DNA from: Botryllus schlosseri
Taxonomy: Eukaryota
NCBI GenBank assembly: GCA_051294905.1
Contig: CM119378.1
Coordinates: 9,424,001-9,488,000, forward strand
Reading direction: 5' to 3'
DNA: 64,000 nt
The translations under genes and the position numbers were made by a program. Positions 1-39,585 of this stretch are shown here, in pieces. Within the stretch, counting starts at the first letter, position 1, and every line of letters starts with the position of its first letter. A model generated the notes under the pieces. It made no database searches and was not told where the DNA came from. It saw only the letters and a list, made by a program, of their open reading frames with translations.

Positions 1-2
1 GG

Positions 3-953
3 ACCAGTTTTCTCATGCAGGTCTTTATTTTCGCCAGAGGACATTTCGCTCTGGATGTCAGTTGTAGTAGTCGCCATGCAACTATGGGCCGGATTCCTAT
101 CGTCATCCGGATAAGTGCATCCGCGAGAGTGTTCTGGACCAGTTTTCTCGTGCAGGTCCATCTTTACGCCAGCGGGGATTCCACGCTCGACGTCTTCCTT
201 AACGGTGTCAGCAGGCATTCCTGTCTCAACACCTATAGTTTCCCATGGGTTCTGTGTGACGTAAGTTGCTAATTTCAACTCGTCGCTCGCACCAGTGGTT
301 ATTTCCATCTCGGTACTCGCGCCAACGGCCATTTTCCGCTCCACGCTAAATTGGTTTGCAGCATCCATCAACCCATCGTTGGTTACAGTGTAGCTAGTAC
401 TGCTTCCAACTTCGGTTCCGTTACCTTGGTCATAATGATTCCCTTCGAGTAATGATGCTAAAGACAGCTCCTCATTTGCGTTAGACGGGGTTTTGAATTC
501 CGTAGTTACGCCTGGTAATTGTTGGACTTCCTCAATCCATTTCAGCCCTACGATATTAAGTGGGACTCCTGGTCCGGTTACAAATGGAACGGGCAGTCCA
601 CCAATATCAATCACTACAAAAGAGTCCACTTGGGACGAGCCACCTATTCCAGTTAATTCCATGTCTATTGGTTGACGTTTTTCCCAGCTTCGTGGATATT
701 TAGTTATAACGACCTTTTTCATTATCAAATTGGGGATGCTCCCCGTGTCAGCTAGGAATTTTGTACCAGTTGCTGTATCAATTAAATACAACAACTGGCC
801 TCCAAACAATTCCGTAAAGTCGGGCTGTAGGGGGTCATCCGGCATATCAAGAAATGTAAATAAGGGTAATGATGAGTTATGTACAGTTTTTGTATGTTGA
901 ATTATTAAATTGTCTGGGAGCTGATTCACCGGATCAATCAGCACCCCAAGGCG
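3..953 (-). CDS. pol: Retropepsin-type aspartic protease and start of Pol, in the -1 frame relative to gag; open to the window edge and missed by the ORF track
   Basis: Manual translation gives 317 codons without a stop: FLADTGSIPNLI (D-T-G at 749-741), flap-like LTGIGG, C-terminal NIVGLKWI. An acidic linker follows, with DLHEKTGP repeated at 45-aa spacing. Confidence 0.9.
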
Positions 954-959
954 TTTTTT
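916..959 (-). promoter_or_regulatory. -1 programmed ribosomal frameshift signal: slippery heptamer A AAA AAC (959-953), 6-nt spacer, hairpin (946-916)
   Basis: The heptamer is in the gag frame, 4 sense codons before the gag TGA, and a -1 slip lands in the protease frame. Hairpin GGG-U-GCUGAUU / AAUCAGC-U-CCC has 10 pairs, one U-U mismatch and a 9-nt loop. The same heptamer is used at MMTV and HTLV-1 gag-pro. Confidence 0.88.
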
Positions 960-3778
960 GAAAGTCGTATACCTTGATTCAGTTCCTCGTCCGTCCAATA
1001 TGAAGCATCATATTGACGCGGCCGATCATGATATTGAGGTTTCGTCCAGGCCACTTGGGTATTTCCCCCAGATGGACGTGCAGGTGGTCCATGAGGACCC
1101 CATTGATCCCTATCATGCCAGTGGGTTCTATCTCGGTTTTTTGGCCTGGTATCATAATAGGCTTCGCACAGAGCGGTCCTCTGTGTAAACGAGGGTGAAC
1201 CTTGAGCAGCCAGATATCGATCAAGTCCTTCAATTGTTAGTATGTTATTTCTCGCAAGGAACGGTTTCCAGTTTCGTTCTGCAGATTCTTTAACATGAGG
1301 GGGTACAGGTCGTGCTCGCCCACGAATTACCCATCCTAATTCCTCATCCCTAGCAAGAACCTTATCGTTTAGCCACAGTATGAACTTAGCCACGCAATTT
1401 CGGGATTGATGTCCCGGTGCCTTACAGTAGTAACAGACGGACAGGGATTGTCCCTGAGTGGGATTTAGATACAATCCTAGAGGAGCGAAAATATTCGGGT
1501 TTCCAAGAAAATTGTATCTCTCACCTTGACTATCCGCAATGTTGCGGGCTTCCTGGCTGCTGGACGGCGTAATTTGTGAGTTGTCTGCACCCATCCCGGA
1601 ATCTTGCGTATTCGCCACTCGCGGACTTCGGTTTGCGGTTTCCGGTCCTGGACTAGCGCGTGAAGATCTTGTTGTTCTTGTTGGCTGTCCGTTAGGTCTC
1701 GATGATGCGTTACGCCCATCCTGTTGGTGTACTGGCCTGGCCCTCGGGCCTTGTCCACGCCTACCAAATCCATTACCATTCATGATGCGGGTGGGGAATC
1801 GATTGTTGCGTGCTTTACGTTGAGGATTCCGACGTTGTAACGGTACCTGGTCTGCATTAGCAAGCTGACGCGGTGAGATCCCCCTAGGTGATCCAGGAGG
1901 TGTTGCCCCCCCAAAGTTATTCAGTGGTTGTAGGGGCGAGGGTGATTGTACCACCGGCGGTGGGGTGTCACCAGGTGGAGGAGGAGTGTTGAGCTGACTG
2001 TCCTCTCTTCCATGAGTGGGATAACTGTGCACTATTTGTCCTGCAGGTTGAACATTATAAATGTGTACTGGCGGCAATGACGGTTTTGTATCAAGGACTT
2101 CCTTTGTTTCCTGATACCTGGGGCGTGTCTCTTGTTCATCCAGGAACTCGGAGTTCCAAACAAGTTGTAGTTCCTCCGCAACGTCCCGCCAAGTTTTATC
2201 CTCTTCCCAGCCTCGCAACATCAGTCTGAGCGCTTCTGGAAGGCGTTGTCGTAAATTTCGGAAAAGACGTAATCCATCTGGATTATCCTCAATAAGACTA
2301 TCCATGTCTATTTCTAGTTGCTTCAAGGCGCTATTCAGCCGAGGTAGCGGCTCATCCTCCCAACGATAATTTCTGCGGAATTCTCCAATGATCTTTTCGT
2401 CATTTACCAAACCCTGGGGATTGGATAAGGAAAGAGATCGCATCACCGATTCCCACTCTGCTTCTCCCGAATTGGTATTAAAAAAATTTCCCAGTTGGGT
2501 AGCCTGTTTGTGTCGACCAGCAGCCCTCAATTTCTTCTGCAGTGCATTAGCCAAAATAACATCCACATCCGTATTTCCAGGACCGTGGCGTATTCTTCGC
2601 ATCGAATTCTCCATCCATTTTAGCAGTGGCATGTCACCAGGGTCCATCATTAGCTGAAGCATTTCTTTTTCTGATTGGATTTTAGCAGACACATTCAGCA
2701 ATGGGTCCGTAATACCGGAATAGCGGTGCGGCTGTTGTCGCCCTGACCTTTGGTTACGATCGTTAGGAGTAGAGGTAAAACGAGGCATATTTGGATAAGT
2801 TAGTTTGTTAGGTTGGCCCTCATTCGTATCTTCATCCGACAAATCTTCGGAACTTCGTGGCGACTTCCAAATTTCCCTTATTTCTCGAGCCAATACTCGC
2901 ATACGATCATCGTAATCGTCGTCTTTGGTGTCTTCCGCATCTTCTGTAGCATCACTCTGTTCTCTGAAGTTCACCCGTCGGGATTCGCCATCCGCACTTC
3001 CAGCTCGTCTTCGAGAATCCTTCTCCTTGTTACGACGTTCCTGCCATCCTCGATACCCCATATACTTATCTAAGGGGCTCTTTTTTGGTTTTGTCTCTAT
3101 TTGAGGCTCCCCATTTCTGAGGTCAATCAAGAAGGGATTAGTAGGTGTATATTTCTTTTGTTTGGCGCGTGCACCACTACCCACATGGAAACAAGGCGCC
3201 GTTCCCCTGTCGGTATCTGACAACGCGGTCGAGCCGGAAAGTGGTAGCTTAGGATAGACAGCCGTTACAGTATGACAATCCAAACCTTTGCGAACCGTCA
3301 TGGTTGGCCCTGGTGTTACGTCCCGTATTCGCTGCTCAGAGAGAGGAACGTAAGCTGGTGGGTCATCTTCCGGTGCATTTGGAGATACTGTCAAAACGGG
3401 AGATTGAATGCTATCTCGTGTAGCCTGTGCATGTGACTTTCCGAGCTCAAATTCTGAAGTAAGGATGTCATTCAGCGCGTCGGTGGAGACCTTCCCGCTG
3501 ACTTTTGTTGTGGCATCACAAACAGCTTTGAGGTCTGCTTGAGCTTTTCGAACCTCTTTCTTTGCCTTTTCTAACCCTTTCATGGTTTCCGGCAGAGCTG
3601 TCTTTACCTCTTTCAATAGCTCTGTTTGTTCAGCCACGTCCTTAGCCAGTTGTCTTTCTTGTCGCCGGACATCTTCATGGCGTTTTTGTGTAGCTTTAAG
3701 CAAGGTAATCCCTTGTTTGAGTTCGTCTGTTGCTTCTGACGGCTTTTTCCTTTTGAATGCTTTCAACATCCTTCGCAT
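938..3778 (-). CDS. gag: Gag polyprotein, 946 aa
   Basis: Basic N-terminus and coiled coil; PPAY (3350-3361) and YPKL (3245-3256) motifs; helical capsid-like region (LRQRLPEALRLML...TWRDVAEELQLVW); Pro/Arg-rich linker; CX2CX4HX4C knuckle CYYCKAPGHQSRNC (1394-1435). Lies downstream of a PBS and upstream of a protease. Confidence 0.92.
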   Translation of the reverse strand: MRRMLKAFKRKKPSEATDELKQGITLLKATQKRHEDVRRQERQLAKDVAEQTELLKEVKTALPETMKGLEKAKKEVRKAQADLKAVCDATTKVSGKVSTDALNDILTSEFELGKSHAQATRDSIQSPVLTVSPNAPEDDPPAYVPLSEQRIRDVTPGPTMTVRKGLDCHTVTAVYPKLPLSGSTALSDTDRGTAPCFHVGSGARAKQKKYTPTNPFLIDLRNGEPQIETKPKKSPLDKYMGYRGWQERRNKEKDSRRRAGSADGESRRVNFREQSDATEDAEDTKDDDYDDRMRVLAREIREIWKSPRSSEDLSDEDTNEGQPNKLTYPNMPRFTSTPNDRNQRSGRQQPHRYSGITDPLLNVSAKIQSEKEMLQLMMDPGDMPLLKWMENSMRRIRHGPGNTDVDVILANALQKKLRAAGRHKQATQLGNFFNTNSGEAEWESVMRSLSLSNPQGLVNDEKIIGEFRRNYRWEDEPLPRLNSALKQLEIDMDSLIEDNPDGLRLFRNLRQRLPEALRLMLRGWEEDKTWRDVAEELQLVWNSEFLDEQETRPRYQETKEVLDTKPSLPPVHIYNVQPAGQIVHSYPTHGREDSQLNTPPPPGDTPPPVVQSPSPLQPLNNFGGATPPGSPRGISPRQLANADQVPLQRRNPQRKARNNRFPTRIMNGNGFGRRGQGPRARPVHQQDGRNASSRPNGQPTRTTRSSRASPGPETANRSPRVANTQDSGMGADNSQITPSSSQEARNIADSQGERYNFLGNPNIFAPLGLYLNPTQGQSLSVCYYCKAPGHQSRNCVAKFILWLNDKVLARDEELGWVIRGRARPVPPHVKESAERNWKPFLARNNILTIEGLDRYLAAQGSPSFTQRTALCEAYYDTRPKNRDRTHWHDRDQWGPHGPPARPSGGNTQVAWTKPQYHDRPRQYDASYWTDEELNQGIRLSKNALGC

Positions 3779-3786
3779 CGTCCTTC

Positions 3787-4056
3787 CTATTGACTGGAGA
3801 AGGTACTGTTGACAGAAGTTATTAGATCAGGTGAAGATATGTTAAAATGGATTGTAGATCCTTGCGGCGTAATCGTGGGAGGAACGTAAGCAGTAGATGC
3901 GCTGCTGTTGGATCCCAAAAATACGTTCAATAGATTAGAAAGCGCTCCAGGCGATACGTGCAGATAGATTGCTGCCAATATAATCAGGAGAGATATAGAA
4001 GATGAAAGCAAGGATACGACAAGTACAAGTTTTACGATGGTCGTCTTAGAAAGCAT
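3787..4056 (-). CDS. 89-aa upstream ORF between PBS and gag; predicted signal-anchored glycopeptide
   Basis: ATG start, ~25-aa hydrophobic N-terminal stretch, three N-X-S/T sequons (NSS, NIS, NST). It is the first AUG after the SL copy and stops 8 nt before the gag ATG. Confidence 0.65.
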   Translation of the reverse strand: MLSKTTIVKLVLVVSLLSSSISLLIILAAIYLHVSPGALSNLLNVFLGSNSSASTAYVPPTITPQGSTIHFNISSPDLITSVNSTFSSQ

Positions 4057-4104: not shown

Positions 4105-4354
4105 ATTTTGTTTTTATAGTGCAGCTCCACAACGATTGTTATGCGAGTAGTCCACACTTGTTCGGGTTACTTCCTAGTAAAGCGTTGCCTTTCGTTTGCT
4201 TTAGTATCCTGACGACGTCTGTAAATGGTGATTGGAGCAACAACAGTTGTAGGATTGTTTCTTCTCAAGTTGACAATGACCCTGGGGTCCAGAATTTTAA
4301 TCTACCTTTATCTACTGATAATCTATAAGCTTTAATACAACCAAATACTCCAAT
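4105..4354 (-). other. Putative R/U5 part of the 5' LTR
   Basis: 250 nt between the SL copy and the PBS, with no AUG, two ATTAAA hexamers, and an end of ...AAAACAAAAT abutting the PBS. Boundaries cannot be confirmed without the second LTR. Confidence 0.5.
4330..4354 (-). other. Genome-encoded copy of the stolidobranch ascidian spliced leader
   Basis: ATTGGAGTATTTGGTTGTATTAAAG versus the 24-nt Halocynthia-type SL ATTGGAGTATTTGGTTGTATTAAG (recalled from memory), differing by one inserted A. Not followed by a GT donor. Confidence 0.8.
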
Positions 4355-4365
4355 CAGTTAATTGC

Positions 4366-4427
4366 GCAGACGGAAATGTGGTAACTCCATGCAAAACTTG
4401 GTTAAAATTGGCATACACATCATCCAT
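4366..4427 (-). promoter_or_regulatory. Promoter-like block, copy 1 (upstream of SL/PBS/gag)
   Basis: ~62-bp block duplicated at 5750-5810 (gcagacggaaatg.ggtaactc.atg.aaaact...ttaaa.ttggcatacac.tcat.cat); contains an ETS-like CGGAAAT. Confidence 0.55.
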
Positions 4428-5244
4428 CAATTATAACACAAGGCATGGTTTAACCTATACATCATCATACACAATTAACAAACATTTTCAATACTCCAAG
4501 GTTTGTTTTCGCATATAATTGATGCGACGGCCTTTCCTGCCGTAAATATCAATACATTTCAAATATCAATTCCTATTCATCATAATATTCTTCAGTATAC
4601 TTGCGATTATAATGTTTCAATCAATTATAACATATCAACATTAAGGACGTCATGTCTTCAGTGCAATTAAAATCACTATGATCCTCTTAATCGGACCGCA
4701 TGATACTACCCTTAACTAAGATGCCACTTAATACAGGCATTGCAGATTGTTCAAACAGGTTTTAGTGTTCATTATTTAGTTAATTTAATGGTTTAGTTGT
4801 TCAAGATTTTATAAGATTTTATATTGTTTTTCATTAATTATTTATTTAGCCTATAATAAGGGTTCGCACCGTAAACTTCGGATTTTGTTTCCCTAAAACT
4901 AGGGCTTCAATCCCTAGGGTCCTGCTTAAAAATAAGGGCGTAGCAGTGTATAACGCCTTATATACATACTGTAGGGATGACGAGGCCCCACAGTATTAAA
5001 TTCATTCGCAGTTAGCAAAACAGCAATAATCCGTACAAACTGTAAAACATTTCTGAATATAGGTTGACCAAACCATTCAATAAACCGTGAACGTGACGGA
5101 ATCAATTTTCTGTGCAACAAAATACAATAAAATGACTCTATGCAAGACGCAATAGAGATTCTTGACCATTCTATATTCCGTAGGTCAGTTATAACACTTT
5201 ATATACATACATGAAAACAATAGCATTCCTGGGCTTAATATTTC

Positions 5245-5694
5245 TCATTGAACTAAGACATCTATAGTATCCTCAGGATAAAAGGGTTCCGTAGATTCGG
5301 CTTGTTCCTTCACCCATTCATCCGTGATCAAATTTTCCATAGGATGCATTCGAGCCATATAGTTGAACCACAAAAGTTTAGCCTTTTCATAATTTCCAGA
5401 GGCCATGTCTCTTATCATTTTATGGTTTTCTAGTATTCCTTGGTAGTCAATAACAAGGGGCTTCTCATCAGAAAGAGTTTCTTTAATTCGTTTGAAAAAA
5501 CATTTCAATCCAAGTTTGATATATTTGGGCGGGGTCCTTGACCATTCGTACCATCTATGAGAGGGGGGCATTCTTGCTTCATATCGTTCTTTGAATAACC
5601 AAAAATAAAAGATCAAATCTTGTTCCGCCACATTAGATCCAACTAGTTTGGTGACATCAACATCACCTTTATCATTTACTTCAGCGTTATTCAT
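5245..5694 (-). CDS. Accessory protein, family A (149 aa), unknown function
   Basis: Intact ATG ORF; motif H..I......NYEKAKLLW....RMHP.....DEW shared with three neighbours; closest to 7652-8047. Confidence 0.8.
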   Translation of the reverse strand: MNNAEVNDKGDVDVTKLVGSNVAEQDLIFYFWLFKERYEARMPPSHRWYEWSRTPPKYIKLGLKCFFKRIKETLSDEKPLVIDYQGILENHKMIRDMASGNYEKAKLLWFNYMARMHPMENLITDEWVKEQAESTEPFYPEDTIDVLVQ

Positions 5695-5749
5695 ACTTTT
5701 AATTTTTCTGAAAGCAATTAATCATCCAGTTAAGGTTCTATTTGGTCAT

Positions 5750-5810
5750 GCAGACGGAAATGGGGTAACTCAATGTAAAACTCAATTAAATTGGCATACA
5801 CGTCATACAT
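5750..5810 (-). promoter_or_regulatory. Promoter-like block, copy 2 (upstream of a family A gene)
   Basis: Aligns with 4366-4427; contains CGGAAAT and a CRE-like TGACGT. Confidence 0.55.
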
Positions 5811-5860
5811 GATTAATAGACATTCAACCTAGCAAAAAATACAATATACAATCCAGGCAT

Positions 5861-6316
5861 TCATTGTTCATAATCACATCCATTATATTTCATTTTATGT
5901 ATCAGTATAGCAGCTCTAACATCAGAGGGAAAAGTATCATTAAAGAGTTTATCATTGGTATAAATACAAAATCCGTTTCTATCAGAACAAGGCATTCTTT
6001 CTAGTACCCATTCTTCAGGTACAACATCCGAAGCAGGATGTAATCCAACACAGAAGACAAACCAACAAAACTTTGCATGTTCGTAATTTTCAAACAGTAT
6101 CATGCGGGCGATGGCTAAATGCTTTTTGTATAGCGCATCAAACAGTTTGTCGGATACTCTCAGGTTGCAAATCCTCAAGTAAGGTGTCATAAATATCTCC
6201 AGTTCATCCCGTGTGGTTGCAGCCCATCTGCTGAAGTCTTTGTGTTCATATTTCTTCTCAAAGGAATCGAAGAAAACGTCAAGTTCATGCTTTACTCTAG
6301 CAATTTTATCACCCAT
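5861..6316 (-). CDS. Accessory protein, family A (151 aa)
   Basis: HLAIARMILFENYEHAKFCW...LHPASDVVPEEW; closest to 8053-8508. Confidence 0.8.
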   Translation of the reverse strand: MGDKIARVKHELDVFFDSFEKKYEHKDFSRWAATTRDELEIFMTPYLRICNLRVSDKLFDALYKKHLAIARMILFENYEHAKFCWFVFCVGLHPASDVVPEEWVLERMPCSDRNGFCIYTNDKLFNDTFPSDVRAAILIHKMKYNGCDYEQ

Positions 6317-6452
6317 ATTTTCTTAATATAGAGAATTTTACGTTGATTATTGGACCGGAAACTTTTCTTACTGACATTTTTAACACATATAAGTATAACA
6401 ACACTTCCAAAATATTCAATAATTGTGATGAGCATACTGGATGCATAGTAAT

Positions 6453-6908
6453 TTACTTAGCATACATATCAGTCCAGTTTCTTGCCGTTCTTTGATAGCA
6501 ATCATAGTCATCCCTATACAGTCTAGCGCTCTCAACATCCATTGGATCTTCTGGATTAGGGGAAGCCAATAATGACGAAATCGAGACCAATACTTTTCCC
6601 AACGTTAAAGCGGGTGACCATTCATTTGCAAGAATGTCAATACATATGGTACCCTTACGGCTTATATTCGGATGGAAAATCTTGGTTTCAAATTTGATCT
6701 TCGGAGGCTTGAATGGATATTCCGTTGGAAATTCAATTCTAAGAAGAAATGTTCCTTTTTCATATGGTGTTTTTGGTGGTCCTCGCAAAAGTGCTTGCCA
6801 AACATAGATATCCGACTCGTCCAATGGCCCTGCTTGCAAAATTACAGGATTTGTTCGTATTTCTTGATTAATTTTTCGCCGTTCAACGTATAATCTATGT
6901 TTTGCCAT
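6453..6908 (-). CDS. Ubiquitin-conjugating enzyme E2 (UBC4/UBE2D-like), intronless
   Basis: FPTEYPFKPP, HPN motif, and catalytic Cys in FHPNISRKGTICIDIL...WSPAL. The ATG is at 6908; the ORF track start at 6932 is a TTG. Confidence 0.95.
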   Translation of the reverse strand: MAKHRLYVERRKINQEIRTNPVILQAGPLDESDIYVWQALLRGPPKTPYEKGTFLLRIEFPTEYPFKPPKIKFETKIFHPNISRKGTICIDILANEWSPALTLGKVLVSISSLLASPNPEDPMDVESARLYRDDYDCYQRTARNWTDMYAK

Positions 6909-6968
6909 TCGATGCAGACTTATACTATCCAATAAAACTTACACACATAAAAGAAAAGGGGAACATCA

Positions 6969-7493
6969 CTAATTCAATCGTTTATCCATAGCGTACATGT
7001 CACGTGAAAATCCGGCAATAGTTCTGCTAGTAATGTTCCAATCTTCATCAACATTAGCTATAGCCAATACATATCGTAGAAATAAGTACAAATAGTACGC
7101 AGGACTTTCTCCAAAGTTTTCTTCCACAATGCGCTCCAGTACTTTTTTTGCGCATTCCAATTGTTCCGCCACCTCATGGTCCCGGTATAACCAGACAAGA
7201 AAATCTTTCAATACATACTCCATGTCATTGGCTGTCAACTTCGGAAAGTTTTCTATTCTTTCTTTTATTCGTTCATGTACAACTCCCATCTTTAGCCAAG
7301 CAACTCTGCTGTCAGGTATCGTAGGGTATAGACACTGTCTGAACTTGTTCCGATTCAATTCCTTCTTCTGGGGATCTTTAGGCACATACTCATACTTTTC
7401 ATGATTAACTTCCAACATGTCACAATCAAAGATCAAATAAATTATTAGTGTCTTAAAATTCCTTACACAAAAAACCCAAACATTATTAAACAT
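6969..7493 (-). CDS. Accessory protein (174 aa), unknown
   Basis: Intact ATG ORF inside the array with an SL-like relic 9 nt upstream; no recognised domain. Confidence 0.7.
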   Translation of the reverse strand: MFNNVWVFCVRNFKTLIIYLIFDCDMLEVNHEKYEYVPKDPQKKELNRNKFRQCLYPTIPDSRVAWLKMGVVHERIKERIENFPKLTANDMEYVLKDFLVWLYRDHEVAEQLECAKKVLERIVEENFGESPAYYLYLFLRYVLAIANVDEDWNITSRTIAGFSRDMYAMDKRLN

Positions 7494-7651
7494 TCAACGA
7501 ATCTTAATCAGCAAACCAACTTAATTACACACATAAAAGTTTTTAATTCTAGTTGTTATATTAGATATAGTACATGGTTTTTGAAATCACAAAGTTCTTT
7601 ATATCCAATTGATATAGTGGAAAATTTGATGCATTATATGTATCATTTCAG

Positions 7652-8047
7652 TTAATCATCTTTCAAACATCCTTTTATCCATTGTTCTGAAAAGTTCTCC
7701 TTCATGGGATGCATACGAACAATATGTTGGTACCAAAGAAATTTGGCTTCCTTATAGTTTCCCAGTGTAATAATTGCAATCCTATTATGTTCTTTGATAG
7801 CAGCATGATAACCCAGAGCCTTGCCTTGCGGAGATAATGCACTCCCGTAAACTTTGTCAACATACAGCTTCAGCATTCCAACAATGTCATTGGGTCTTGT
7901 CATAGCCCATCTTTGCCATCTGTCGGAAATTTCCACATCTTCTTCATAATATTTACAGAACATGTCAAAATAATATTTCAAGTCGCACACTGCAGATTCA
8001 TATCCCATTCGCAATGATTCCTGGTTACTTCTATTTCTTTGAGACAT
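7652..8047 (-). CDS. Accessory protein, family A (131 aa)
   Basis: HNRIAIITLGNYKEAKFLW...RMHPMKENFSEQW. Confidence 0.8.
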   Translation of the reverse strand: MSQRNRSNQESLRMGYESAVCDLKYYFDMFCKYYEEDVEISDRWQRWAMTRPNDIVGMLKLYVDKVYGSALSPQGKALGYHAAIKEHNRIAIITLGNYKEAKFLWYQHIVRMHPMKENFSEQWIKGCLKDD

Positions 8048-8052
8048 TCTTC

Positions 8053-8508
8053 TTAATCGTGTAATATAACAATTTTCGAACAGGCGTCTTCTAAAATCGG
8101 AATAGCAACAGTTTCAAATTCTCGAGCATTCAGAAGTAATGTTGCAGAATCTTTTAATTCCATTTGTGGTAATCTTTCATCCAGAAATTCTTCTGGTAGA
8201 TACTTATGAGCCGGATGTAATTTTAGAACAAGTCCAAACCATGTATATTGGGCCAGATCAAAATCTTTTGTAACAAAAACGCGAGCAATATCACTATGTG
8301 CGTCATAAAGCTTATCAAAAAGCTTTTCTGTCACATTCGCAAAACAATGATGAAGGTATTTCTTTATTAATTTTTTGAATTTTTCCTTTGGGGTATTTTT
8401 CCATATCTCAAAATTTTGATGATGGTATTCCTGTTCAAACTCATCATAGTATTCATTAATTTGTTTCTTGGCTAGCGTAATTTCCCAATTCTCTAATACT
8501 CTAGTCAT
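8053..8508 (-). CDS. Accessory protein, family A (151 aa)
   Basis: HSDIARVFVTKDFDLAQYTW...LHPAHKYLPEEF; an SL-like relic directly abuts the ATG. Confidence 0.8.
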   Translation of the reverse strand: MTRVLENWEITLAKKQINEYYDEFEQEYHHQNFEIWKNTPKEKFKKLIKKYLHHCFANVTEKLFDKLYDAHSDIARVFVTKDFDLAQYTWFGLVLKLHPAHKYLPEEFLDERLPQMELKDSATLLLNAREFETVAIPILEDACSKIVILHD

Positions 8509-8637: not shown

Positions 8638-10329
8638 TCAAGCTCTATACACCTTTATCTTTTCCAGTATTGTTTCACCACAAATGTTGCATCTTTCGGT
8701 ATTTGTTGCACATTTTTCACAACTACATAAATGTCCACAAGGTATGAAAGTAATTTCACTTTTGTTTCTCTTGCAATTTTTGCAAAGCACAACCTCTTGT
8801 ATTTCTTTCAAACTTTGCGCGATCTCATCCACCGACATTGTTTCTGCAACTGCTGCTTCTTTCGTTTCTTTGTTGTTGTTTACTTCGTGATTATTTTCAG
8901 ATATACTATCGCCTTGTTGTGTTGTTTTCGTTGGACTGGCGGTAATTGTATTTACTGTCTCTAGTAAATCCTGAATTATATCACCAGTAGAGAAAGGATC
9001 ATTAATCTGTCTATTTATAGTTCCTTCTATTTGATCTCTCGTAAATCCCATGTCTTCCAGTTGCATCCTGTTTATGTATTGTCTAGATAACCTTGGTCGA
9101 TTATGGTTCCTTCGTATCTCCTCTCGTGGTGCATCAAGACATATTGCATTCCTTATCGATGGTCGATTGAGATTGGGATGTTCATCTCTTAGTCGTAAAA
9201 CGAAATCAATACCTTTCATTTGCAAAACATATTCACAACCAGGAAACCACTTTGCATGTTCTGTCCACGGCTCATCATTGTAGTTCCAGTTTTGTAATCC
9301 TCCATTGCAGTAAAAGCATTTCGCCCTGTCCGAATCCCCTAAATAATACATACCCGCTTTAGCCAATTGTTCCGTTGTTGCGAGGATCCTGGGCCATTTT
9401 TCATTAAACGAAGATATTCTTTGCTGTAACGATGTCATATGCAAATTTATCGGGTAAAGGCAAGGGAATCTTTCCACCAACTGGAGTTGTTCTTCTGGCG
9501 ATGGATCCGGAGGTTCTCCCCTATTAGTAGTTAACCTTTCAATTTTTATTTTAAGTTCATTATCTGCCTGATTTCTCTCGGAGTCTGTCAAGGGCATATT
9601 TCCTGCATACTCGTTATTTGCCATTTTGCATTTTGTAAAATGTCTTTTATGTTGTTCAAGGACATTATCAGTGGGTGCCCAATTTCTCAGTACTCCTGAG
9701 CATGAAAAACATTGCGCTCTGTCAAGGTTTCCCAGGTAAAAAAATCCCTGTTTTGCCAATTCCCCTACCAAGTATGGAGTAGGATAGGAAGGCCATTTGT
9801 CAAAGGTTCTTCTTCTCTCTAGTTCACTCCTCAAATTTGCTGATCGCAATGAAGTCTCATGTTCTTGGTCACAAATGTTCGCAAACACGGTTTGTGGTAA
9901 GGGACATTTTTCCTCTTTGATAGTCGGTCTTTGCACATTCCGATTAGTTTGCTGACTTCTTGTAGTAAGGTTAAGGTGGCACCTCATTTGTTCAAAAAGG
10001 AGCCTCCTTAAGTAATTTGAAATAGGCAAGTTATAACCATGTTGTATGGTCACCATGTCACAAGTAGATTTATGCCACTTGTCATCAAAAGGATCATCTC
10101 CAGTGACCCATTTTTCCACAGATACGCCACAGCAGTAACATCTTACTCTATCTTGAAATCCTGTCCAATAGAAACCAGCAGCGGCTAGATAGCTCGGTAT
10201 CACAGGAGTTTCTTTCGAAAAATGTTTGAACGTTGCAAGTCTGTAATACTCAACCCGGTGATCTCCAGGTGGAATATAAACGCAATTATGTCCAGGAGGA
10301 TCACGATCTCTTTTCATCAGAATGCCCAT
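8638..10329 (-). CDS. iap: Inhibitor of apoptosis protein (3 BIR, UBA-like segment, RING), 563 aa, intronless
   Basis: Three BIR repeats (LAAAGFY...C..C...W...D...H...C pattern), LEDMGF UBA-like segment, C-terminal RING CKNC...PCGHLCSCEKC...CNIC ending IKVYRA. Confidence 0.96.
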   Translation of the reverse strand: MGILMKRDRDPPGHNCVYIPPGDHRVEYYRLATFKHFSKETPVIPSYLAAAGFYWTGFQDRVRCYCCGVSVEKWVTGDDPFDDKWHKSTCDMVTIQHGYNLPISNYLRRLLFEQMRCHLNLTTRSQQTNRNVQRPTIKEEKCPLPQTVFANICDQEHETSLRSANLRSELERRRTFDKWPSYPTPYLVGELAKQGFFYLGNLDRAQCFSCSGVLRNWAPTDNVLEQHKRHFTKCKMANNEYAGNMPLTDSERNQADNELKIKIERLTTNRGEPPDPSPEEQLQLVERFPCLYPINLHMTSLQQRISSFNEKWPRILATTEQLAKAGMYYLGDSDRAKCFYCNGGLQNWNYNDEPWTEHAKWFPGCEYVLQMKGIDFVLRLRDEHPNLNRPSIRNAICLDAPREEIRRNHNRPRLSRQYINRMQLEDMGFTRDQIEGTINRQINDPFSTGDIIQDLLETVNTITASPTKTTQQGDSISENNHEVNNNKETKEAAVAETMSVDEIAQSLKEIQEVVLCKNCKRNKSEITFIPCGHLCSCEKCATNTERCNICGETILEKIKVYRA

Positions 10330-10569: not shown

Positions 10570-11229
10570 TTAATGGAGATGTATGTCCAAAATATAGGAA
10601 TTTTCCAGATATTGATTCATTGACTGGGCTTTCTTATCTACTTTCTTCGAGTATATGTATATATATGCATCCATAACGGAGGTATCAGAACTCAACGACA
10701 TATAACCTTTTACTCCTAGGTTGGTTTGGCTGTGCCAAGTCCATTTGCAATTCGCATCTGTAACATAAGCCAGACTATTTGCACATACTAACAATCTTGT
10801 ATGGCCCATTATTACTCCTCGTATCACTTCATATATTACTCGTCTCATACATAGGGGAGGTATTCTTCGGACAACTCCCATCAAAGTTTCCGTAATTATA
10901 GTCCATGTGTCGTCATCGGGTCGTATTGTCTGTTTACTCCATACTATGAGTCGTTGTCGTGAGGAATCTTTCACAATGGCAGAATCCTGGGAGTCGTCAG
11001 AGTCCGTATTACTAGAAATTTCGTCCTCCGGCGTTTCTCCATGGGGTTTCCTGTCGCCACATGGAAGTTGTCTTTTGTACCAATTATGTTCTTGTTCAAA
11101 AAAGTTTTTCAACATATCCATCAGCAACTTTAGACATCCAGTATTTTTTCGCACGTCGATTTTATCTAGTTGATTTATTAATTTACAAAAAATAGCAGTA
11201 TTATGATCCTGTACTTCAGATAGATACAT
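10570..11229 (-). CDS. Accessory protein, family B (219 aa)
   Basis: YEVIRGVIM...WHSQTNLGVKGYMS shared with 14247-14813. Confidence 0.8.
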   Translation of the reverse strand: MYLSEVQDHNTAIFCKLINQLDKIDVRKNTGCLKLLMDMLKNFFEQEHNWYKRQLPCGDRKPHGETPEDEISSNTDSDDSQDSAIVKDSSRQRLIVWSKQTIRPDDDTWTIITETLMGVVRRIPPLCMRRVIYEVIRGVIMGHTRLLVCANSLAYVTDANCKWTWHSQTNLGVKGYMSLSSDTSVMDAYIYIYSKKVDKKAQSMNQYLENSYILDIHLH

Positions 11230-11482: not shown

Positions 11483-12430
11483 TCAATGTTCCAGTGTCCT
11501 AAAATTAGGATCAAGAGCAATTATCTCTAAAAATAGTTGAAACCTTTCCTCCAAGGCCACCCTTCTTTTCCAGAGCCACTCCTGTAAGTAATGAGGAATA
11601 AGTGATCTTGATACCCCATTCAGCCTTCTAATAGCAGCTTTAAAAAAATTCCAAGACACCTCGATCAATTGTGTATTTATGCCTTCTGTAGTGACAAATT
11701 CGCGATCATGATTAACTACTGAATGTTTATAATTCATTCCCAGGCTTTCCAACTTGCGGTAACTGGCAAATGAATCAGTCCATATAGTGGATCCCTCTTT
11801 TACGTGTTTCATAATTATTTCTGATAATACAGAGGTTTTTCTCCCTTCTTCAGGTACCAATTCTGCAAACATTTCTCGCGTTTTCATATCTATTCCAGCC
11901 AAAACCCAGCGTTGGCGTATTATTCTTCCACGATTAAATTTTCTTTTGGCCACAAACGTCTCATCAATTTGAATTACATGTGATTTACCTTGTGATATTC
12001 CCCCTATTAGGGTACCTCTTCTTTCCATTTCCACAGAGCATATCTTACGAAGTTTCTTGGTCCAATTCACCATTGTTCTCTTGCTGACGTGTGCTTCAAA
12101 AGCTATTTGTCGTTGAGATACATCTATGGTCCAAAGATAAATCATCATTACAAGTTGGGTGAGTCTTATTTTACTTCCTTCAAATAGTGATCCTTTCCTT
12201 ATGGACGTGGTAGTCCTGCACTTTGAAACCGGACACCTCCATCTATATCCATCCATAGTTCTTTTGCATTTTTCTTCATTCATTTGTTGTCCACAATTAA
12301 AACATGTTGCCTTTTGAACAAGGAGTTGCCGTGATCGCAGAAACTTTATACATTTTCGTTCACTTGATATTATACCACATCGAGCAAGATTGAATAGATT
12401 TTTTCTTTTTCTGGATTCTTTAGTCTTCAT
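11483..12430 (-). CDS. IS1595/ISXO2-like (Merlin-type) DDE transposase, 315 aa
   Basis: N-terminal Zn ribbon (CFNC...WRCPVSKC), HTH-like region, catalytic QIDET / WTDSFASY / TQLIEVSW, C-terminal YLQEWLWKR. No TIRs seen. Confidence 0.9.
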   Translation of the reverse strand: MKTKESRKRKNLFNLARCGIISSERKCIKFLRSRQLLVQKATCFNCGQQMNEEKCKRTMDGYRWRCPVSKCRTTTSIRKGSLFEGSKIRLTQLVMMIYLWTIDVSQRQIAFEAHVSKRTMVNWTKKLRKICSVEMERRGTLIGGISQGKSHVIQIDETFVAKRKFNRGRIIRQRWVLAGIDMKTREMFAELVPEEGRKTSVLSEIIMKHVKEGSTIWTDSFASYRKLESLGMNYKHSVVNHDREFVTTEGINTQLIEVSWNFFKAAIRRLNGVSRSLIPHYLQEWLWKRRVALEERFQLFLEIIALDPNFRTLEH

Positions 12431-14246: not shown

Positions 14247-14813
14247 TCATGATTGTTCCGGTATTATAGAGTCAATGTTCACACTTTCCCCTTCGTAGGG
14301 GTAAGGATGTATTTCTATACGTCTTATCCTTTTTGTTCGCCAATGTATTGAACTTGAATAGCCTTTTAGGCCCAAATTATTCTGGCAATTCCATTGTTCC
14401 ATATGTGGCGGATCTTTACAAATTTCTCTCTCCTGGTACACGTCCTTTGTTATATTAGTGTTTGTAAGTTTCATCACAAGTCCTCTAATTAATTCATACA
14501 ACATGACTCTTCTTCCCAAAGAGGTGTATTCCTTTGCTCTTATTTCAAATATCTCTTCTGCCACATGGTTGAATTTATCAAGAATTTCTTCGGTTAATTC
14601 CTCATCTAGGGCTACCTCTTCTAGGCCATCGTCTGTTTGTTTAACCCAATCGGCTTGGTCCGTAAGCAATTCCCATACTTTTTCTTTAAACTGGTATCTC
14701 TCATATTCGCTGTTATATTCTTTAAGATTCAATAGATCCAACTCGTCATATACATCGTACAAATGACACCAATTTGTTGAATCGTAACCTTCAATATAAT
14801 CAAAATCTAGCAT
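14247..14813 (-). CDS. Accessory protein, family B (~188 aa)
   Basis: YELIRGLVM...WNCQNNLGLKGYSS. First in-frame ATG is at 14813; the ORF track start at 14870 is a TTG. Confidence 0.78.
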   Translation of the reverse strand: MLDFDYIEGYDSTNWCHLYDVYDELDLLNLKEYNSEYERYQFKEKVWELLTDQADWVKQTDDGLEEVALDEELTEEILDKFNHVAEEIFEIRAKEYTSLGRRVMLYELIRGLVMKLTNTNITKDVYQEREICKDPPHMEQWNCQNNLGLKGYSSSIHWRTKRIRRIEIHPYPYEGESVNIDSIIPEQS

Positions 14814-29592: not shown

Positions 29593-31935
29593 CTATCTCA
29601 GTTTTTCATGCAATGTTACTGCTGTAATATACGTCTTTTGGTTATTCCGCCGAACAACCTTTTTAAGATAATTTTTTGCTGCAACTCTCCCGCATTTCGC
29701 ATAACAAAAATACATACATCCTACCATTGTTGTTACGCTAACCGCAAAAATCAAGACATAATTGTTAAGTGATTCTTCTAAATCCTTTCTATTGTTAATA
29801 TCCACAATAATTTTACCTGATGCATATCCTTGTTCTATTTCGTGTAGTTTGTGCAATCGTCCATAGAAGTCAAATGTAATTCGGTCCAATCTGTCATATC
29901 TGGCCGTAGGTAAGGTATGCGGTATACTGAGTGTAGTTTTTCCTTCTTCTTCGATAGAGGGTGTAATTGAAGAAAGTGCACTATTGGAAGTACTCTTCCA
30001 ACTTCTGATCACATCATTTTTACTTACTGATGTGGGATCGCTCTGATAGTCACCTGATGAAAGCATTGACGTTGATTTAGTTCTTACCTGTAGATCTTGC
30101 TTTTTGTTTAAATTATCTGGTTCTGTATTAGAGCGGGACTTGCTGGTGACGAAGTATTGGTGCGTTTCAACTGTCGTTGCTACTTGTGATGTATCAAACA
30201 ACATATTGAAATGCGCTCTTGGCGGTGTCGTGTCCTTGATTTGATTTGCGTGATGACTTAATTGTATGTAAGACTCAGGTATCTGCGTAATTTGGGATGT
30301 TTTCCTTATTGGCACGGATAAGGAGCCTAACATTTCACCATTTTTTGAGGGTATTTGATAGGTCATGGTATTCCATTGTAACCTTGCTTTTACACTTCTC
30401 GCCATTGGTACACGTGTTGTTAACCCACTTTCAGAAAAGGTGACTCCTGTCGTAGCAATACCAATGCTTTTCTGAGTGTCCATCTCTGTTGATATAGCCA
30501 TAGATGGTTCCACAGTTGTGAAAATATCAGTGGGACTCGTCCTGCGTCTTTCTTGCTCACTAACAGTTTTCACTGTAGTTAAGAATGTAATAATAGATGT
30601 AGTTGGTCTTGGGCCGGTGTTATCTTCGCGTGAGGAATGCACAGTAGTCAATATGGCTGGGAGCGATGTCGATGAAGTCGTTTCGGAAATAGCAATAGCC
30701 GATGTCAACCCTCCAGTATCTGGTGTGATTGCAGCAGTGGATAAAGTGGTCGTAATACTATCTGACGTATGTGCAGATGTTTTTGGCGTGGAAATTGTCG
30801 TATCTGTTGTTAACTCAGTCGTATATTGAGTATTTTTAATTGATGTTGGAGTTTCAATCATTGGTAATGCCATTGTAGTTTCAATAATATTTGTAGAATC
30901 CGTAGTATAAGCTATCTGTATGGGCCTATGTTTTAATAAAACATTATATTCTCCGTCTTTGTCATAATAATCGTAGTAGTAATTTCCAGCGTCTTGAAAA
31001 CTAGTATTATCGTCATAACCGGCATAGCTAATTCCTTCGTCGTAACCTTCTATATAATCGTAGTTATAGTGGTTAGTGTCGTATTGATTCGTCATTCTTA
31101 CATTTTCCTCAGTAATTGTTATGGTTTTTACCCGTGTCACAGCGGGTTCTGGAGTCGCTACAACAGAAGTGATATCAACCCATATACCAGTCTCGCTACT
31201 AGGAGGCACTTCTCGAGTGATTCCTTCGTAACTTACAGTCCTTGTCGTTATTGCTTCCGCGTTACTTCGTGGCATTACGGAGCTAGAAGGTACTTTTCGA
31301 GTGGTTCCTTCATAATTTACAGCCTTTGTCGTTATTGATTCCGCGGTACTTAATGGCATTTCAGAGTTAGTTCTGATTTTGTTATTGTCCTTATAGGCAT
31401 AAGGCGTATACACCAATATTCCAGCACATATTGCGGCTGTGTAGGCCACACTTGGTCGGAATATCCGGATATCATGAAACTGCACCTCTATGAGCTTGCG
31501 TGTTGACATATAGCTCAGTAATTCTTCATTTATCCTACTCAATTTCTGAGGTGTCAAGGCTGACCGTAGCGCCTGACTTAGAGACTCCATCTCTTTACCA
31601 GTTATGGACCTGTCCAATCTCCCCAGTTTTCTCCGCATTTTATATATGGGCAAAGATAACTGGCGTAACCGCCGTTTTGTTGCTTCTACGTAATACATTC
31701 CTAGGCGAGCTAGATAATAGTCCATATTCCTTGTATTTTGCCCATAGCTTTTAAATGATGCAGTCAGGATAAAGTCGCCTAATCTACCGGGTTGTTTACA
31801 CTTGGGTAGACTCTTAGGCCATGCTTTGAGGGGAGATTCCTGACCTGCAGGTTTTGGAGATGCAATTCGTAAACGACCATTGCTATGATCTGCATACACG
31901 GGTTGATTTGTATATGGATCACCCAGCAAACACAA
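29593..31935 (-). CDS. Mucin-like membrane glycoprotein (780-codon frame; first ATG at 31725 gives 710 aa)
   Basis: Long Thr/Ser-rich stalk, Tyr/Asp-rich patch, duplicated AE.ITT..V.YEG.TR.VP.SS unit, C-terminal TM (YVLIFAVSVTTMVGCMYFCY) with a basic tail, possible second TM (VAYTAAICAGILVY). The ORF track start is a TTG, so the true 5' end is uncertain. Confidence 0.8.
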   Translation of the reverse strand: MCLLGDPYTNQPVYADHSNGRLRIASPKPAGQESPLKAWPKSLPKCKQPGRLGDFILTASFKSYGQNTRNMDYYLARLGMYYVEATKRRLRQLSLPIYKMRRKLGRLDRSITGKEMESLSQALRSALTPQKLSRINEELLSYMSTRKLIEVQFHDIRIFRPSVAYTAAICAGILVYTPYAYKDNNKIRTNSEMPLSTAESITTKAVNYEGTTRKVPSSSVMPRSNAEAITTRTVSYEGITREVPPSSETGIWVDITSVVATPEPAVTRVKTITITEENVRMTNQYDTNHYNYDYIEGYDEGISYAGYDDNTSFQDAGNYYYDYYDKDGEYNVLLKHRPIQIAYTTDSTNIIETTMALPMIETPTSIKNTQYTTELTTDTTISTPKTSAHTSDSITTTLSTAAITPDTGGLTSAIAISETTSSTSLPAILTTVHSSREDNTGPRPTTSIITFLTTVKTVSEQERRRTSPTDIFTTVEPSMAISTEMDTQKSIGIATTGVTFSESGLTTRVPMARSVKARLQWNTMTYQIPSKNGEMLGSLSVPIRKTSQITQIPESYIQLSHHANQIKDTTPPRAHFNMLFDTSQVATTVETHQYFVTSKSRSNTEPDNLNKKQDLQVRTKSTSMLSSGDYQSDPTSVSKNDVIRSWKSTSNSALSSITPSIEEEGKTTLSIPHTLPTARYDRLDRITFDFYGRLHKLHEIEQGYASGKIIVDINNRKDLEESLNNYVLIFAVSVTTMVGCMYFCYAKCGRVAAKNYLKKVVRRNNQKTYITAVTLHEKLR

Positions 31936-32039
31936 AACTTATTAAAGATATTTTTTAAACATCTTCCATGAGTTCAAAAGATGTCCTTCAATGAAGTGCA
32001 AAATATATACATTTGTCGACAGAAATGGATATATATAAG

Positions 32040-32170
32040 ATGTCCTGTAGGACATCCTCAAAGATATCCTGATAGACATCCTCAAAGATATCCTGATAAT
32101 CATCCTCAAAAATATCCTGATGGAGATCCTCAAAGATATCCTGATAAACATCCTCAACGACATCCTATAA
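32040..32170. repeat. 24-bp tandem repeat (gacatcctcaaagatatcctgata-like), ~5-6 copies
   Basis: Directly visible, just upstream of the mucin-like ORF. Confidence 0.85.
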
Positions 32171-33618
32171 GATATTTTTTGTACAATTCGACCCTGTGTG
32201 ACCCTGAACCCTGGTAGGCTAAACCTGCTATATGCTGCACTTCACACATGAACGAATACGAATCATCAATTTTACAAATCATGTATGGCTTTTTGTTCTG
32301 TATTGTACCAGTTCAAAATACAAAAAAAAAATGCACTGGACTAGACCTCGACGAAGACAGTTCAAAATACAAAAAAAATGCACTTGACTAGACCTCGACA
32401 AAAAATTGGAATAAAAATGGATGAAGAACGAAGGTAAAATAATAGTCCCTGACATAACATACGTTAGCAAGAAATAGGCAGCAAGAGGTAGGCCTTTTTG
32501 TTCAGAAGGAAAACTAATTGCCAATTTTAAAAATCAGCATGTATATGGCTTTTTGTTCTGTATGAAATCAGTACAAAACACTAAAAAATACATGGATGAA
32601 GAAAATACGTTAGCAAGAATTGGGCCTTGATACAGAACTGTGCAATCACTTCAGCCAATACTTCTGCCTCCTCGATAACAGTCTTGCTCCTGTTTTCTCC
32701 TTTATCGTCGTCCTATAACAGAAATGAATTGATTACTTTGATTGATTAGCAGTAGAGCAATAGTCATTATATGTGTTTGTTCGTGAGTAATGTGGGACGG
32801 TCATGTCAAGTCACATTCATCCAAGGATTCCGATCCGTCTTTAGGAAGTCACGACGAACTTGGTGGAGTGCGACAGCCAAGTCAAACTTTACCATCTACT
32901 TCGACAAAATTGTCGATTCAACTCTGCGCGCCAAATTTGGCTTAATTCCAACATATAGAAGCTGATAAACCAGGGGTTCTCAGCCATCTATTGGCCGTGC
33001 CCCATTTTCGGGTTTGAAAATGTTCTTGAGACCAATCTCTTACCACAGAGTAGAGTCGTAGTCCTTTTCAATGTGTGGTAATCGCCACCACCAATTTGCA
33101 TATTTCTCTATTATAAGCACCTTTTTATCTTACTAATCATATTTAAATGTAGACCTACAGGGACAAAAAATCGCGCAAAGCACGACAAAAATCTACTTCA
33201 ACAAACGACAAACAAAGTAATTTTGGGTTCAGTCGAGCTCCCCTAATTGGGCGTTTGAAGATGGCCCTGGAAGATCGTATAACTCATCGTTATCGCTCTG
33301 GGCCAGCTTCAAACATTTCTTTGGTGAACGGGATACTATAGCTAGCTGTAAAATGTACCTAATATATATACCAGCGAAGTTTCAAATCCCTAATTTTGTA
33401 TCTCAATTTGACATCTACACGTTGGAATTGAGCCATATTTGCCATGCATCTTGTTCGCCACCGAAATAGCCGACCCAATGCTCCCTCTAATTTTTGTCAA
33501 GTCTGCACACACTCACCAACTCACAGTAGTGCATAACGACTAAAAAAATGACATCACTTCAGATTTGTTCTGTGCGCAGAGACCAACTAAGCACTGCGCA
33601 ATTGCGCACATGCGTAGT

Positions 33619-34271
33619 AGGGCTCTTCAAAAATGACTTTTTTTCTCAAATCGTACTGGCTACTTGATAAAATTGTTAGGTTACCTAATTTAAGCCTACA
33701 CACAAAATTTGGTTCAATTCCAGCCAGTAACCGCTTTGCTACAGGAGAAGTAAGTTTCTATTTATTATGTAAAAATAAATAATAAAAAATTTGAAAATTT
33801 TCTGTTCACCCCATGAAAGTGTTGGGCTGTCTATAGAAACGATGCTCACCAAATTTGGTTCAATTCAAACCAGTGGAAGCGGAGTTATTGCTGTCGAAAA
33901 ATTTGGATTTGAATAAAATAGTATTTACGGTGACCGATTCTTTGTTCATTTATTAAAGTTGTGCTCACCGTAAATACTATTTTATTCAAATGAGAATTTT
34001 CCGACGGCAATAACTCCGCTTCCACTGGTTGGAGTTGAACCAAATTTAGCGAGGGTCGTTTCTATAGACAGACCAACACCTTCATGGGGTGAACAGAAAT
34101 TTTTTTATTATTTATTTTTACATAATAAATAGAATCTTACTTCTCCTGTAGCAAAGCGGTTACTGGCTGGAATTGAACCAAATTTTGTGTGTAGGCTTAA
34201 ATTGGGTAAAATAACAATTTTATCAAGTACCCAGTACGATTTGAGAAAAAAAGTCATTTTTGAAGAGCCCT
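33619..34271. mobile_element. Foldback/palindromic MITE, ~650 bp
   Basis: Arms of ~310 bp are near-perfect reverse complements (agggctcttcaaaaatgac...gtcatttttgaagagccct). Confidence 0.85.
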
Positions 34272-37200: not shown

Positions 37201-37419
37201 ACGAAAGGCCTTGACCCATAAATCTAAAACAGATGGATAATATAGATGGTAAGTTTCCAGATTTATCAAACTACTGGATTTGTAAACAGCGCAACTAGAT
37301 CTAGAATTACTCAAATTTGAAAACTCGCACAAACTTGAAAAAACGATATTGTATCGCACACGCAAACATAGAACTGCTAGGTAATGAACCACTGTACGCA
37401 AGTAACGGTATATATAGCT

Positions 37420-37812
37420 TAGTGGTTCCCAACCTTTTTCGGTGTCAGGGCCAAATTTAGAATTTCAGAGTATATTGTTGGGGCCGCACGAATTCGTGAC
37501 TGCTTTAGATCAATAAAAAGTTCACAAAATAGAGTAAAATCGAGGAGAACTGCTGCTGGGTTTTGCCTCAGGGGGCTCAGCGTATTCAACCGTGAGTCAC
37601 GTGTTGTACATCTATTCGTAGATTAGTTATCAATACCTATATACAGTAGTTAGCACTCTACTCAGAACTTTTCTGCAATCCTAATTAACAACTCCAAGCT
37701 AAGCAAGAGAATTTTATAAATATAAATTTTATTTTATATCATAAATCGATTTCTTTAAATTTTTGTGGGGGACGCAAGACGGCTAGCTCAAGGCCGCGGT
37801 TGGGAATCACTG
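37420..37812. mobile_element. hAT-type MITE
   Basis: Ends tagtggttcccaacc / ggttgggaatcactg; 8-bp TSD atatagct / gtatagct. Confidence 0.75.
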
Positions 37813-39041: not shown

Positions 39042-39585
39042 TTCAGCACAAGGTATGCACATAGCAATTTACAACGTAGCTACGTTGCAAATTGCTATGG
39101 TATGCACAGGATATGATTTGGACTTGACTGGACAAGAACAAGATATATTTAAGCCGTGCTTCAGCACAAGGTATGGACAAGATATGATTTGGACTTGACT
39201 GGACAAGAACAAGATATATTTAAGCCGTGCTTCAGCACAAGGTATGGACAAGATATGATTTGGACTTGACTGGACAAGAACAAGATATATTGATGTCGTG
39301 CTTCAGCACACAAGGTATGGACAAGATATGATTCAGACTTGACTGGACAAGAAAAAGATATAGGTAATTCGTGCTTCAGCACAAGGTATGGACAAGATAC
39401 GATTTGGACTTGACTGGACAAGAACAAGATATATTTAAGTCGTGCTTCAGCACAAGGTTTGCACAAAGATATGATTTGAACATGACTGGAGATGAAAAAG
39501 ATATATTTAAGTCGTGCTTCAGCACAAAGCATGCACAAGATATGATTTGAACCTGGCTGGACAAGAAAAAGATATCCTGACAGGT
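39042..39585. repeat. ~71-bp minisatellite, ~7 copies, directly after the stop codon of the secreted SU-like gene
   Basis: gtgcttcagc recurs at 39156, 39227, 39298, 39371, 39442 and 39514. Confidence 0.9.

Follow-up and report, generated by a model that had tools for sequence, protein, structure and literature searches.

Burro, a group of giant gypsy retroelements of planarians, carries apoptosis- and ubiquitin-related cargo, as the accessible part of PMC6431247 describes. Here we describe a mobile element of about 40 kb, present in dozens of copies, from the tunicate Botryllus schlosseri (assembly GCA_051294905.1, 495 Mb searched) that combines gag, pol and env-like genes with the inverted ends of a Merlin/IS1595 transposon and carries about 20 further open reading frames (ORFs). 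It was analysed from a window of 64,000 nt, the whole stretch CM119378.1 9,424,001-9,488,000. Among its cargo are four small genes, B2, A2, B1 and A1, forming a protein family that the sequence and fold searches made could not assign to any known family. All 31 clusters of family genes in the genome lie within 30 kb of a reverse transcriptase (RT) of the element and on the same strand, and the genes are almost certainly its accessory cargo. An earlier note on this DNA had recognised the four-member family; that its genes are carried by a multicopy mobile element goes beyond it.

The four ORFs were recovered on the minus strand at the positions and lengths noted earlier (149, 151, 131 and 151 amino acids for A1, B1, A2 and B2, Table 1). 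In reading order the block runs B2-A2-174aa-E2-B1-A1, so that, as the earlier note had it, B2 resembles B1 and A2 resembles A1 in the same order, with an E2 ubiquitin-conjugating enzyme and a 174-aa gene between the pairs. Local alignment gave a score of 185 for A1 against A2 (z 30, 35/112 identical) and 213 for B1 against B2 (z 37, 37/106 identical), while the A-B cross-type pairs reached z 7-17. All six pairwise alignments, whose significance the earlier note had left to be checked, are significant: the real score was reached by 0 of 500 shuffles in every pair. At the profile level A matches B over 105 columns (hhalign 98.1%, E 7e-14). A and B are one paralog family, with members 17-38% identical to one another. 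The 174-aa gene (z 0-0.7 against the family, hence unrelated) and the gene family of 14247-14813 were considered as further members and rejected.

Besides Met1, the residues common to all four proteins are F34, Y38, W51, T54, H91, I94, A105, W109, H117 and P118 (numbering of the protein at 5245). Across 23 aligned rows, H87, H113, W47, W105, Y34 and F30 (A2 numbering) are kept in 23/23, and the invariants of the whole family are limited to F, Y, W, H, W, H and P. No Asp, Glu, Cys, Lys or Arg is invariant across both types; invariant charged residues are type-specific (E35 and K102 in A; D22, R76 and R112 in B). The motif written in the earlier note is broadly present but slightly too strict, the protein at 8053 having QI, DF and AQ for (D/E)L, N(Y/F) and AK, and that at 7652 QW for E(W/F).

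A tree of 17 rows parts A from B at 100/99 and contains copies 1 and 2 within each type, although its long branches leave the inner order unsure. Together with a sister lineage that holds one B-A pair, this bears out the duplication of a gene pair proposed earlier. The simplest history would be a single ancestral gene giving rise to A and B, followed by duplication of the B-A pair. At the DNA level the two pairs match in one 60-nt stretch only (72%, E 3e-4), and the duplication is therefore old. B comes first in all three pairs compared, with B-to-A gaps of 5 and 166 nt in the window and 67 nt in the sister pair.

Table 1. Features of the window and its element (positions within the window; dN/dS is the pooled ratio of nonsynonymous to synonymous substitution rates)
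Feature	Position	Strand	Remarks
B2, type B	8053..8508	-	151 aa; predicted helical bundle + C-terminal helix; pLDDT 79; dN/dS 0.16 (n=22)
A2, type A	7652..8047	-	131 aa; begins 5 nt past B2 stop; predicted six-helix bundle; pLDDT 92.9; dN/dS 0.19 (n=25)
B1, type B	5861..6316	-	151 aa; dN/dS 0.14 (n=24)
A1, type A	5245..5694	-	149 aa; final family gene ahead of leader and gag; dN/dS 0.27 (n=19)
E2 ubiquitin-conjugating enzyme	6453..6908	-	intronless; HPN motif and catalytic Cys; Pfam UQ_con E 4e-47; dN/dS 0.13
174-aa orphan gene	6969..7493	-	not a family member; dN/dS 0.21
IAP	8638..10329	-	three BIR + RING (Pfam); neighbouring cargo
Orphan gene	10570..11229	-	paralog of 14247 (z 9.2)
Orphan gene 14247	14247..14813	-	in subfamily 2 and sister lineage a gene of its family directly precedes B
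Spliced-leader exon, DNA copy	4331..4355	-	host leader; between A1 and gag; one extra A, no GT after
Non-coding block	4366..4435	-	directly upstream of leader; duplicated upstream of A1
Non-coding block	5750..5818	-	70 bp; upstream of A1; 83% identical to 4366-4435 (E 5e-14)
5' terminal inverted repeat	44716..44739	-	imperfect repeat of about 24 bp with GG at its start; the other repeat ends at G000:C8:9421117, beyond the left edge of the window
Target-site duplication	44740..44747	-	8 bp, repeated at far end
IS1595/Merlin-type transposase	43501..44340	-	at element 5' end; D-D-E motifs; Pfam DDE_Tnp_IS1595 E 7e-10
Second IS1595/Merlin-type transposase-like ORF	11483..12430	-	Pfam DDE_Tnp_IS1595 E 3e-17
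env-like ORF	40855..43371	-	838 aa; by reading of the sequence, has a signal peptide, a polybasic site and a membrane segment at the C-terminus; no Pfam match
gag-like ORF	938..3778	-	946 aa; CCHC knuckle; Pfam zf-CCHC E 5e-4, narrowly below curated cut-off
pol, 5' part	1..1007	-	DTG protease motif; overlaps gag end; runs on left of window
89-aa ORF	3787..4056	-	hydrophobic N-terminus; 8 nt ahead of gag
Secondary insertion	31921..39612	.	7.7 kb; missing from three other copies compared

The four genes are real protein-coding genes under purifying selection. Their dN/dS values, with upper 95% bounds of at most 0.39, stand beside those of the E2 and 174-aa genes in Table 1; they were calculated from intact, distinct copies with open ORFs of at least 110 aa after seven rows had been dropped (six strongly diverged, one fused), the pairs are not independent, and the intervals come from a codon bootstrap. 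None of the 27 A1-type matches has an internal stop, and the variable sites of A2 and B1 are mostly in the tails. Compared with the window, copies such as L144, L102 and L103 are mosaic: the 89-aa ORF may be 99% identical where A1 is 79%, for example, or B2 identical where A1 is 89-93%. This pattern suggests frequent recombination between element copies. In two copies a divergent A1 (39% identical) follows an ordinary B1 (L135:6456-6980, L137:5898-6269), the gene having been replaced in place.

The A and B proteins are predicted to share a compact bundle of six or seven helices without membrane segment, the B2 model showing the same helix run as A2 before its C-terminal helix. The best 19-residue hydropathy of 0.7-1.3 indicates soluble proteins, and three of the four have an acidic predicted pI (5.3-6.1; A2 8.4). 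Foldseek, proposed in the earlier note as a check on structure predictions, returned no match at E 0.001 for the A2 or B2 model. Its list for A2 is headed by Bcl-xL/Bcl-2, but with E values no better than 1.6, TM no higher than 0.21 and rmsd above 10, and Pfam gave no Bcl-2 match for the family proteins. The best VIA fold matches reach Z 7.1 (rmsd 3.9, 95 aligned) and Z 6.7 (rmsd 4.1, 91 aligned) against a designed helical protein and lie within the background for helical bundles; the top two VIA rows are the same for both models. No cyclin is among the Foldseek and VIA rows listed for either model, and these lists lend support to neither a cyclin nor a Bcl-2 fold.

Sequence searches agree with the earlier statement that no known domain is recognisable. 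Pfam, NCBIfam and PHROGs gave nothing at curated cut-offs, a word-indexed homology search with the protein at 5245 gave nothing, the ESM Atlas no usable hit, viral and metagenome contigs no family match, and the PDB sequence search only a designed repeat protein without a passing stretch. A HMMER scan of 1.84 billion representatives returned four hits. Three are close relatives of A2, B2 and B1 (about 70% identical or more), the only close relatives found outside this genome; the fourth, a 3073-aa protein matched over 20 positions only, was taken as spurious. Longer fused forms, sought with the family alignment, were not found (weak evidence), and no host paralog turned up in the genome by single-protein searches, which can miss intron-split genes.

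The 31 clusters comprise 26 with B2-A2-B1-A1 (two of them stretched by insertions and with a divergent A1), two with B2-A2-B1 (subfamily 2), and one each with B1-A1, B-A and B. Both types are thus present in 30/31 and no cluster exceeds four members. A gene accordion, as in poxviruses, is a transient tandem amplification giving variable numbers of near-identical copies. The accordion-like expansion suggested earlier does not fit these clusters: 26/31 hold exactly four genes, five fewer and none more, the paralogous copies are 17-38% identical, and variation arises through loss or replacement. A family gene lies near 32 of 73 element RT matches, counts that are lower bounds. In 8 of 8 sibling lineages where the spliced leader beside gag was found, no family gene occurs in about 5 kb upstream (386 frames against the profiles, best E 0.085); nine lineages had been sampled over about 5 kb each, and the ninth missed the leader region. 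The RT cores of these siblings are 87-95% identical. The family is optional cargo of the element.

In the sister lineage, whose RT core is 52% identical, a single B-A pair is flanked by a 14247-family gene and gag. Within 50 kb it is accompanied by no match to E2, IAP or a transposase; no transposase match was found in the two sister copies scanned. The sister element is about 15 kb long and reads pol-233aa-env-244aa-(14247 family-B-A)-leader-gag, broken at differing points in gag/pol (G000:C2:22.02-22.05M, C3:28.66-28.68M, C12:19.13M, C1:23.95M, C1:0.97-0.99M; L133, L134, L147-L151, L169-L172). The C3 copy has fold-back gag fragments on both sides. Among five sister insertions B-A occurs in one and B alone in another, and the remaining three are missing the module at a single common junction; the module is therefore dispensable there too. 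The sister pair is nearest to B2-A2 (37-38%) and therefore may represent a pre-duplication state or a later pick-up; the module may have been gained in this lineage by exchange. In subfamily 2 a 14247-family gene lies 15 nt ahead of B2, and the 14247/10570 family is a steadier neighbour of B-A than E2 or IAP. The specific partnership with E2 and IAP envisaged in the earlier note is accordingly not upheld, B-A and B occurring in the sister lineage without either. In 5/5 sister insertions gag is downstream of pol and env and the breaks differ; in one of them pol is joined to the 3' end of gag. From these arrangements the sister map appears to be circularly permuted; alternatively, they may be remnants of tandem insertions. 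No free circular form was observed.

Between the family genes and gag lies a DNA copy of the host spliced-leader exon, the 'Chordata 1' leader of Table 1 in PMC3795323 (as given in the accessible part of that paper), a match that points to a tunicate host. All 20 main-family loci keep it, as do the sister lineage and 8 siblings, with differing flanks (L001-L020, L132-L134, L173-L179, L181). Even between lineages with RT cores as distant as 52% it keeps its place, some hundreds of bases ahead of the first ORF on the gag side. A GT follows 18/32 exact copies. The motif is not unique to the element, because 236 exact copies occur across the genome, against 0 of the reversed control. RNA reads heap on 4318-4355, and in 481, 523 and 84 reads of three runs an adapter, presumably the template-switch oligo, directly follows 4355. 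These adapter-bearing reads run on into many unrelated sequences, and the reads on 4318-4355 represent 5' ends of host mRNAs rather than transcripts of the element. The non-coding block at 5750..5818 may have a promoter-like role, and the corresponding region of the sister lineage contains repeats of about 90 bp. Leader relics were also sought before cargo genes; only that of B2 is weakly similar (p 0.005-0.9 across copies, with 0-3 sites per element length expected by chance) and it is unproven. If the element RNA starts at the leader and the map is read as a circle, the B-A pairs would be the last genes.

Most copies of the carrier are 38-40 kb long, and searches for their ends gave sharp limits. 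Four other copies can be aligned with the window between about 44,400 and a point 2.9 kb to the left of its first position, over the extent retrieved. All ends begin with GG (30/30 5' and 30/30 3' ends), the two ends of the window copy match at 17/24 positions of the inverted repeat, and 18/18 paired copies have a target duplication, of 8 bp in 17/18 and 9 bp in 1/18 (12 of the 30 5' ends had no retrieved partner). By its sequence features the carrier is of Merlin/IS1595 type, with GG-starting inverted repeats, 8-9-bp duplications and transposase. Left of the window pol continues with RT, RNase H and then a Tpt1/KptA domain (E 2e-10), which stands at the end of pol where no integrase domain was found. 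This end was observed at L022:7390-7900, left of the window, and at L151:4619-5100, and the C-terminus of the relative P0002 looks similar. The RT-RNase H region shares 21-27% identity with ordinary retroelement proteins; one relative reaches 50%. Comparison of the 3' ends of four copies with the 5' region gave no long terminal direct repeat among the matches listed (at least 150 nt). A search of titles and abstract openings, with subscription papers and Repbase outside its scope, found no paper describing this combination of genes and ends, and Merlin is unmentioned in the accessible part of one review of giant transposons.

Several further features of the element and its surroundings were observed. 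The internal transposase-like ORF 11483-12430 shares about 40% identity with the one at the element end; it is intact in several copies and has Q in place of N before the last catalytic Glu. The cargo region also encodes an LRR protein (Pfam). The paralog family of 10570-11229 and 14247-14813, possibly with 17284-17802, shares an RR..YE..RG motif; the 14247 gene was considered as a Bcl-2 protein on a weak Pfam hit (E 0.044), to which profile searches of the PDB or Atlas gave no backing. A second expanded orphan family, with a weak Pfam PWP3A-B_C match (12500-13006 and 16238-17098), is found upstream of the leader in most siblings lacking A/B (L173-L181) and is therefore more constant than A/B. 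The 7.7-kb insertion contains an inverted-repeat element and tandem repeats (33611-34279, 39028-39609, 32013-32190). In one copy two 3' ends, separated by 14 kb, share their flank (G000:C5:10285872, 10299821), a local duplication. Outside the element, 48085-49047 resembles by eye the C-terminal part of a LINE-type protein, with no Pfam match.

As to function, the family proteins are most likely protein binders. This reading is based on their being conserved, optional, soluble and helical, on their having no catalytic signature, and on their being linked unlike partners, B preceding A in the pairs compared, among IAP, E2 and LRR cargo. The host-interaction role put forward in the earlier note is plausible by analogy. 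In the form we tentatively favour, with slightly less than even confidence, B and A would form a heterodimeric adaptor that binds a host protein and keeps the cell permissive for the element; at the end of a circular map the pairs would stand where complex retroviruses hold their accessory genes. Several points weigh against such an adaptor. The role is drawn from neighbourhood and analogy. B1 is without an adjacent A in 2/2 subfamily-2 copies and A was lost in one sister copy, while linked order can last through co-inheritance alone. The dN/dS values, well under 1, do not point to an arms race with a host protein, and RNA reads of four runs cover the genes at a mean depth of at most 3.4 per direction, mostly as partial fits (3-13% of each read). 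The two invariant histidines could also mark a ligand site. Each protein would then bind a small ligand or metal, as a sponge or small enzyme directed against a host signal, an improbable reading which the invariance of H87 and H113 with four aromatic residues favours; but no acidic, basic or Cys residue is invariant across both types, and the spacing of the conserved residues along the predicted helices fits core packing.

It is rather unlikely, though compatible with the position of the genes beside the inferred promoter and leader in both lineages, that the proteins regulate the element's own expression as transactivator or anti-silencing factor through the non-coding A1-leader region. The copy of the leader-side block upstream of A1 and the repeats of the sister region agree with regulation, and analogies are offered by the WDSV rv-cyclin, which inhibits the viral promoter (PMC3185748, accessible part), and by the VANC proteins of VANDAL transposons (PMC10398659, PMC5735166, likewise). 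However, three of the four proteins are acidic, no basic invariant is common to both types, and siblings with the same leader region have spread without the family. This same absence, from siblings with closely related RT cores and from 3/5 sister insertions, makes it very improbable that the proteins are structural parts of a particle (matrix-like or partners of Gag or Env), small helical bundles though they are and adjoining gag in two lineages with distant RT cores; moreover the leader lies between them and gag. It is hardly credible that the family expanded in accordion fashion and acts together with E2 and IAP as a ubiquitin-ligase module: both genes are its neighbours in the main family and in subfamily 2 and are intact or under purifying selection, but near-identical tandem copies and clusters of more than four members are absent and the sister B-A pair has neither neighbour. 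Returning to the heterodimeric adaptor, a wider proposal that we regard as speculative and on the whole unlikely would make the pairs the terminal accessory genes of reverse-transcribing tunicate viruses that are enveloped, lack integrase and belong to a class not yet described. These would replicate via circular DNA with RNA starting with the host spliced leader; one branch would have taken a Merlin transposase and grown to 40 kb, and the A+B heterodimer, of a fold unmatched in the PDB, would disarm a host defence or death pathway.

A selected, well-folding family unmatched in sequence and structure libraries is a tractable lead on how retro-type elements of invertebrate chordates handle their host, although, taken alone, its interest stays moderate as long as no partner is known. 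The accessory region of an unusual element can be recognised by where the family is present, lost or duplicated. Tracing it exposed the conserved host leader ahead of gag and the apparently circularly permuted sister lineage, which together offer a testable route for reverse transcription of an element without long terminal repeats (LTRs) or integrase.

Compared with known systems, as the accessible parts of the cited papers present them, the resemblance to retroviral accessory genes, to Burro cargo and to the Teratorn carrier is conceptual, without homology to any. As in retroviruses of the walleye dermal sarcoma virus (WDSV) type with their cyclins (PMC3185748), a small non-core gene pair accompanies gag, pol and env and is last on the RNA map if this starts at the leader; unlike the 297-aa rv-cyclin, the proteins have 131-151 aa and no sequence or fold match to cyclins was found, and unlike these viruses the element lacks integrase and showed no LTRs. 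VANC proteins (PMC10398659, PMC5735166) are likewise transposon-encoded accessory proteins beside fast-changing non-coding DNA, but no homology to them was seen. With Burro (PMC6431247) the element shares a size above 30 kb, env homology and BIR together with other apoptosis- or ubiquitin-related cargo; Burro has LTRs, integrase and cargo mostly within the polyprotein, whereas here there are separate genes, inverted ends and a transposase. The ends and transposase are those of Merlin/IS1595 transposons (PMC8101967: inverted repeats starting GG, 8-9-bp target-site duplications, DDE_Tnp_IS1595), but the element differs from these in its length of about 40 kb and in carrying gag, pol, an env-like gene and about 20 more ORFs. 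Teratorn, a piggyBac-alloherpesvirus fusion (PMC6431247), is similarly a virus-like genome with inverted repeats and cargo, integrated by a borrowed cut-and-paste transposase; in the Botryllus element, unlike Teratorn, the viral partner is reverse-transcribing and the transposase is of Merlin type.

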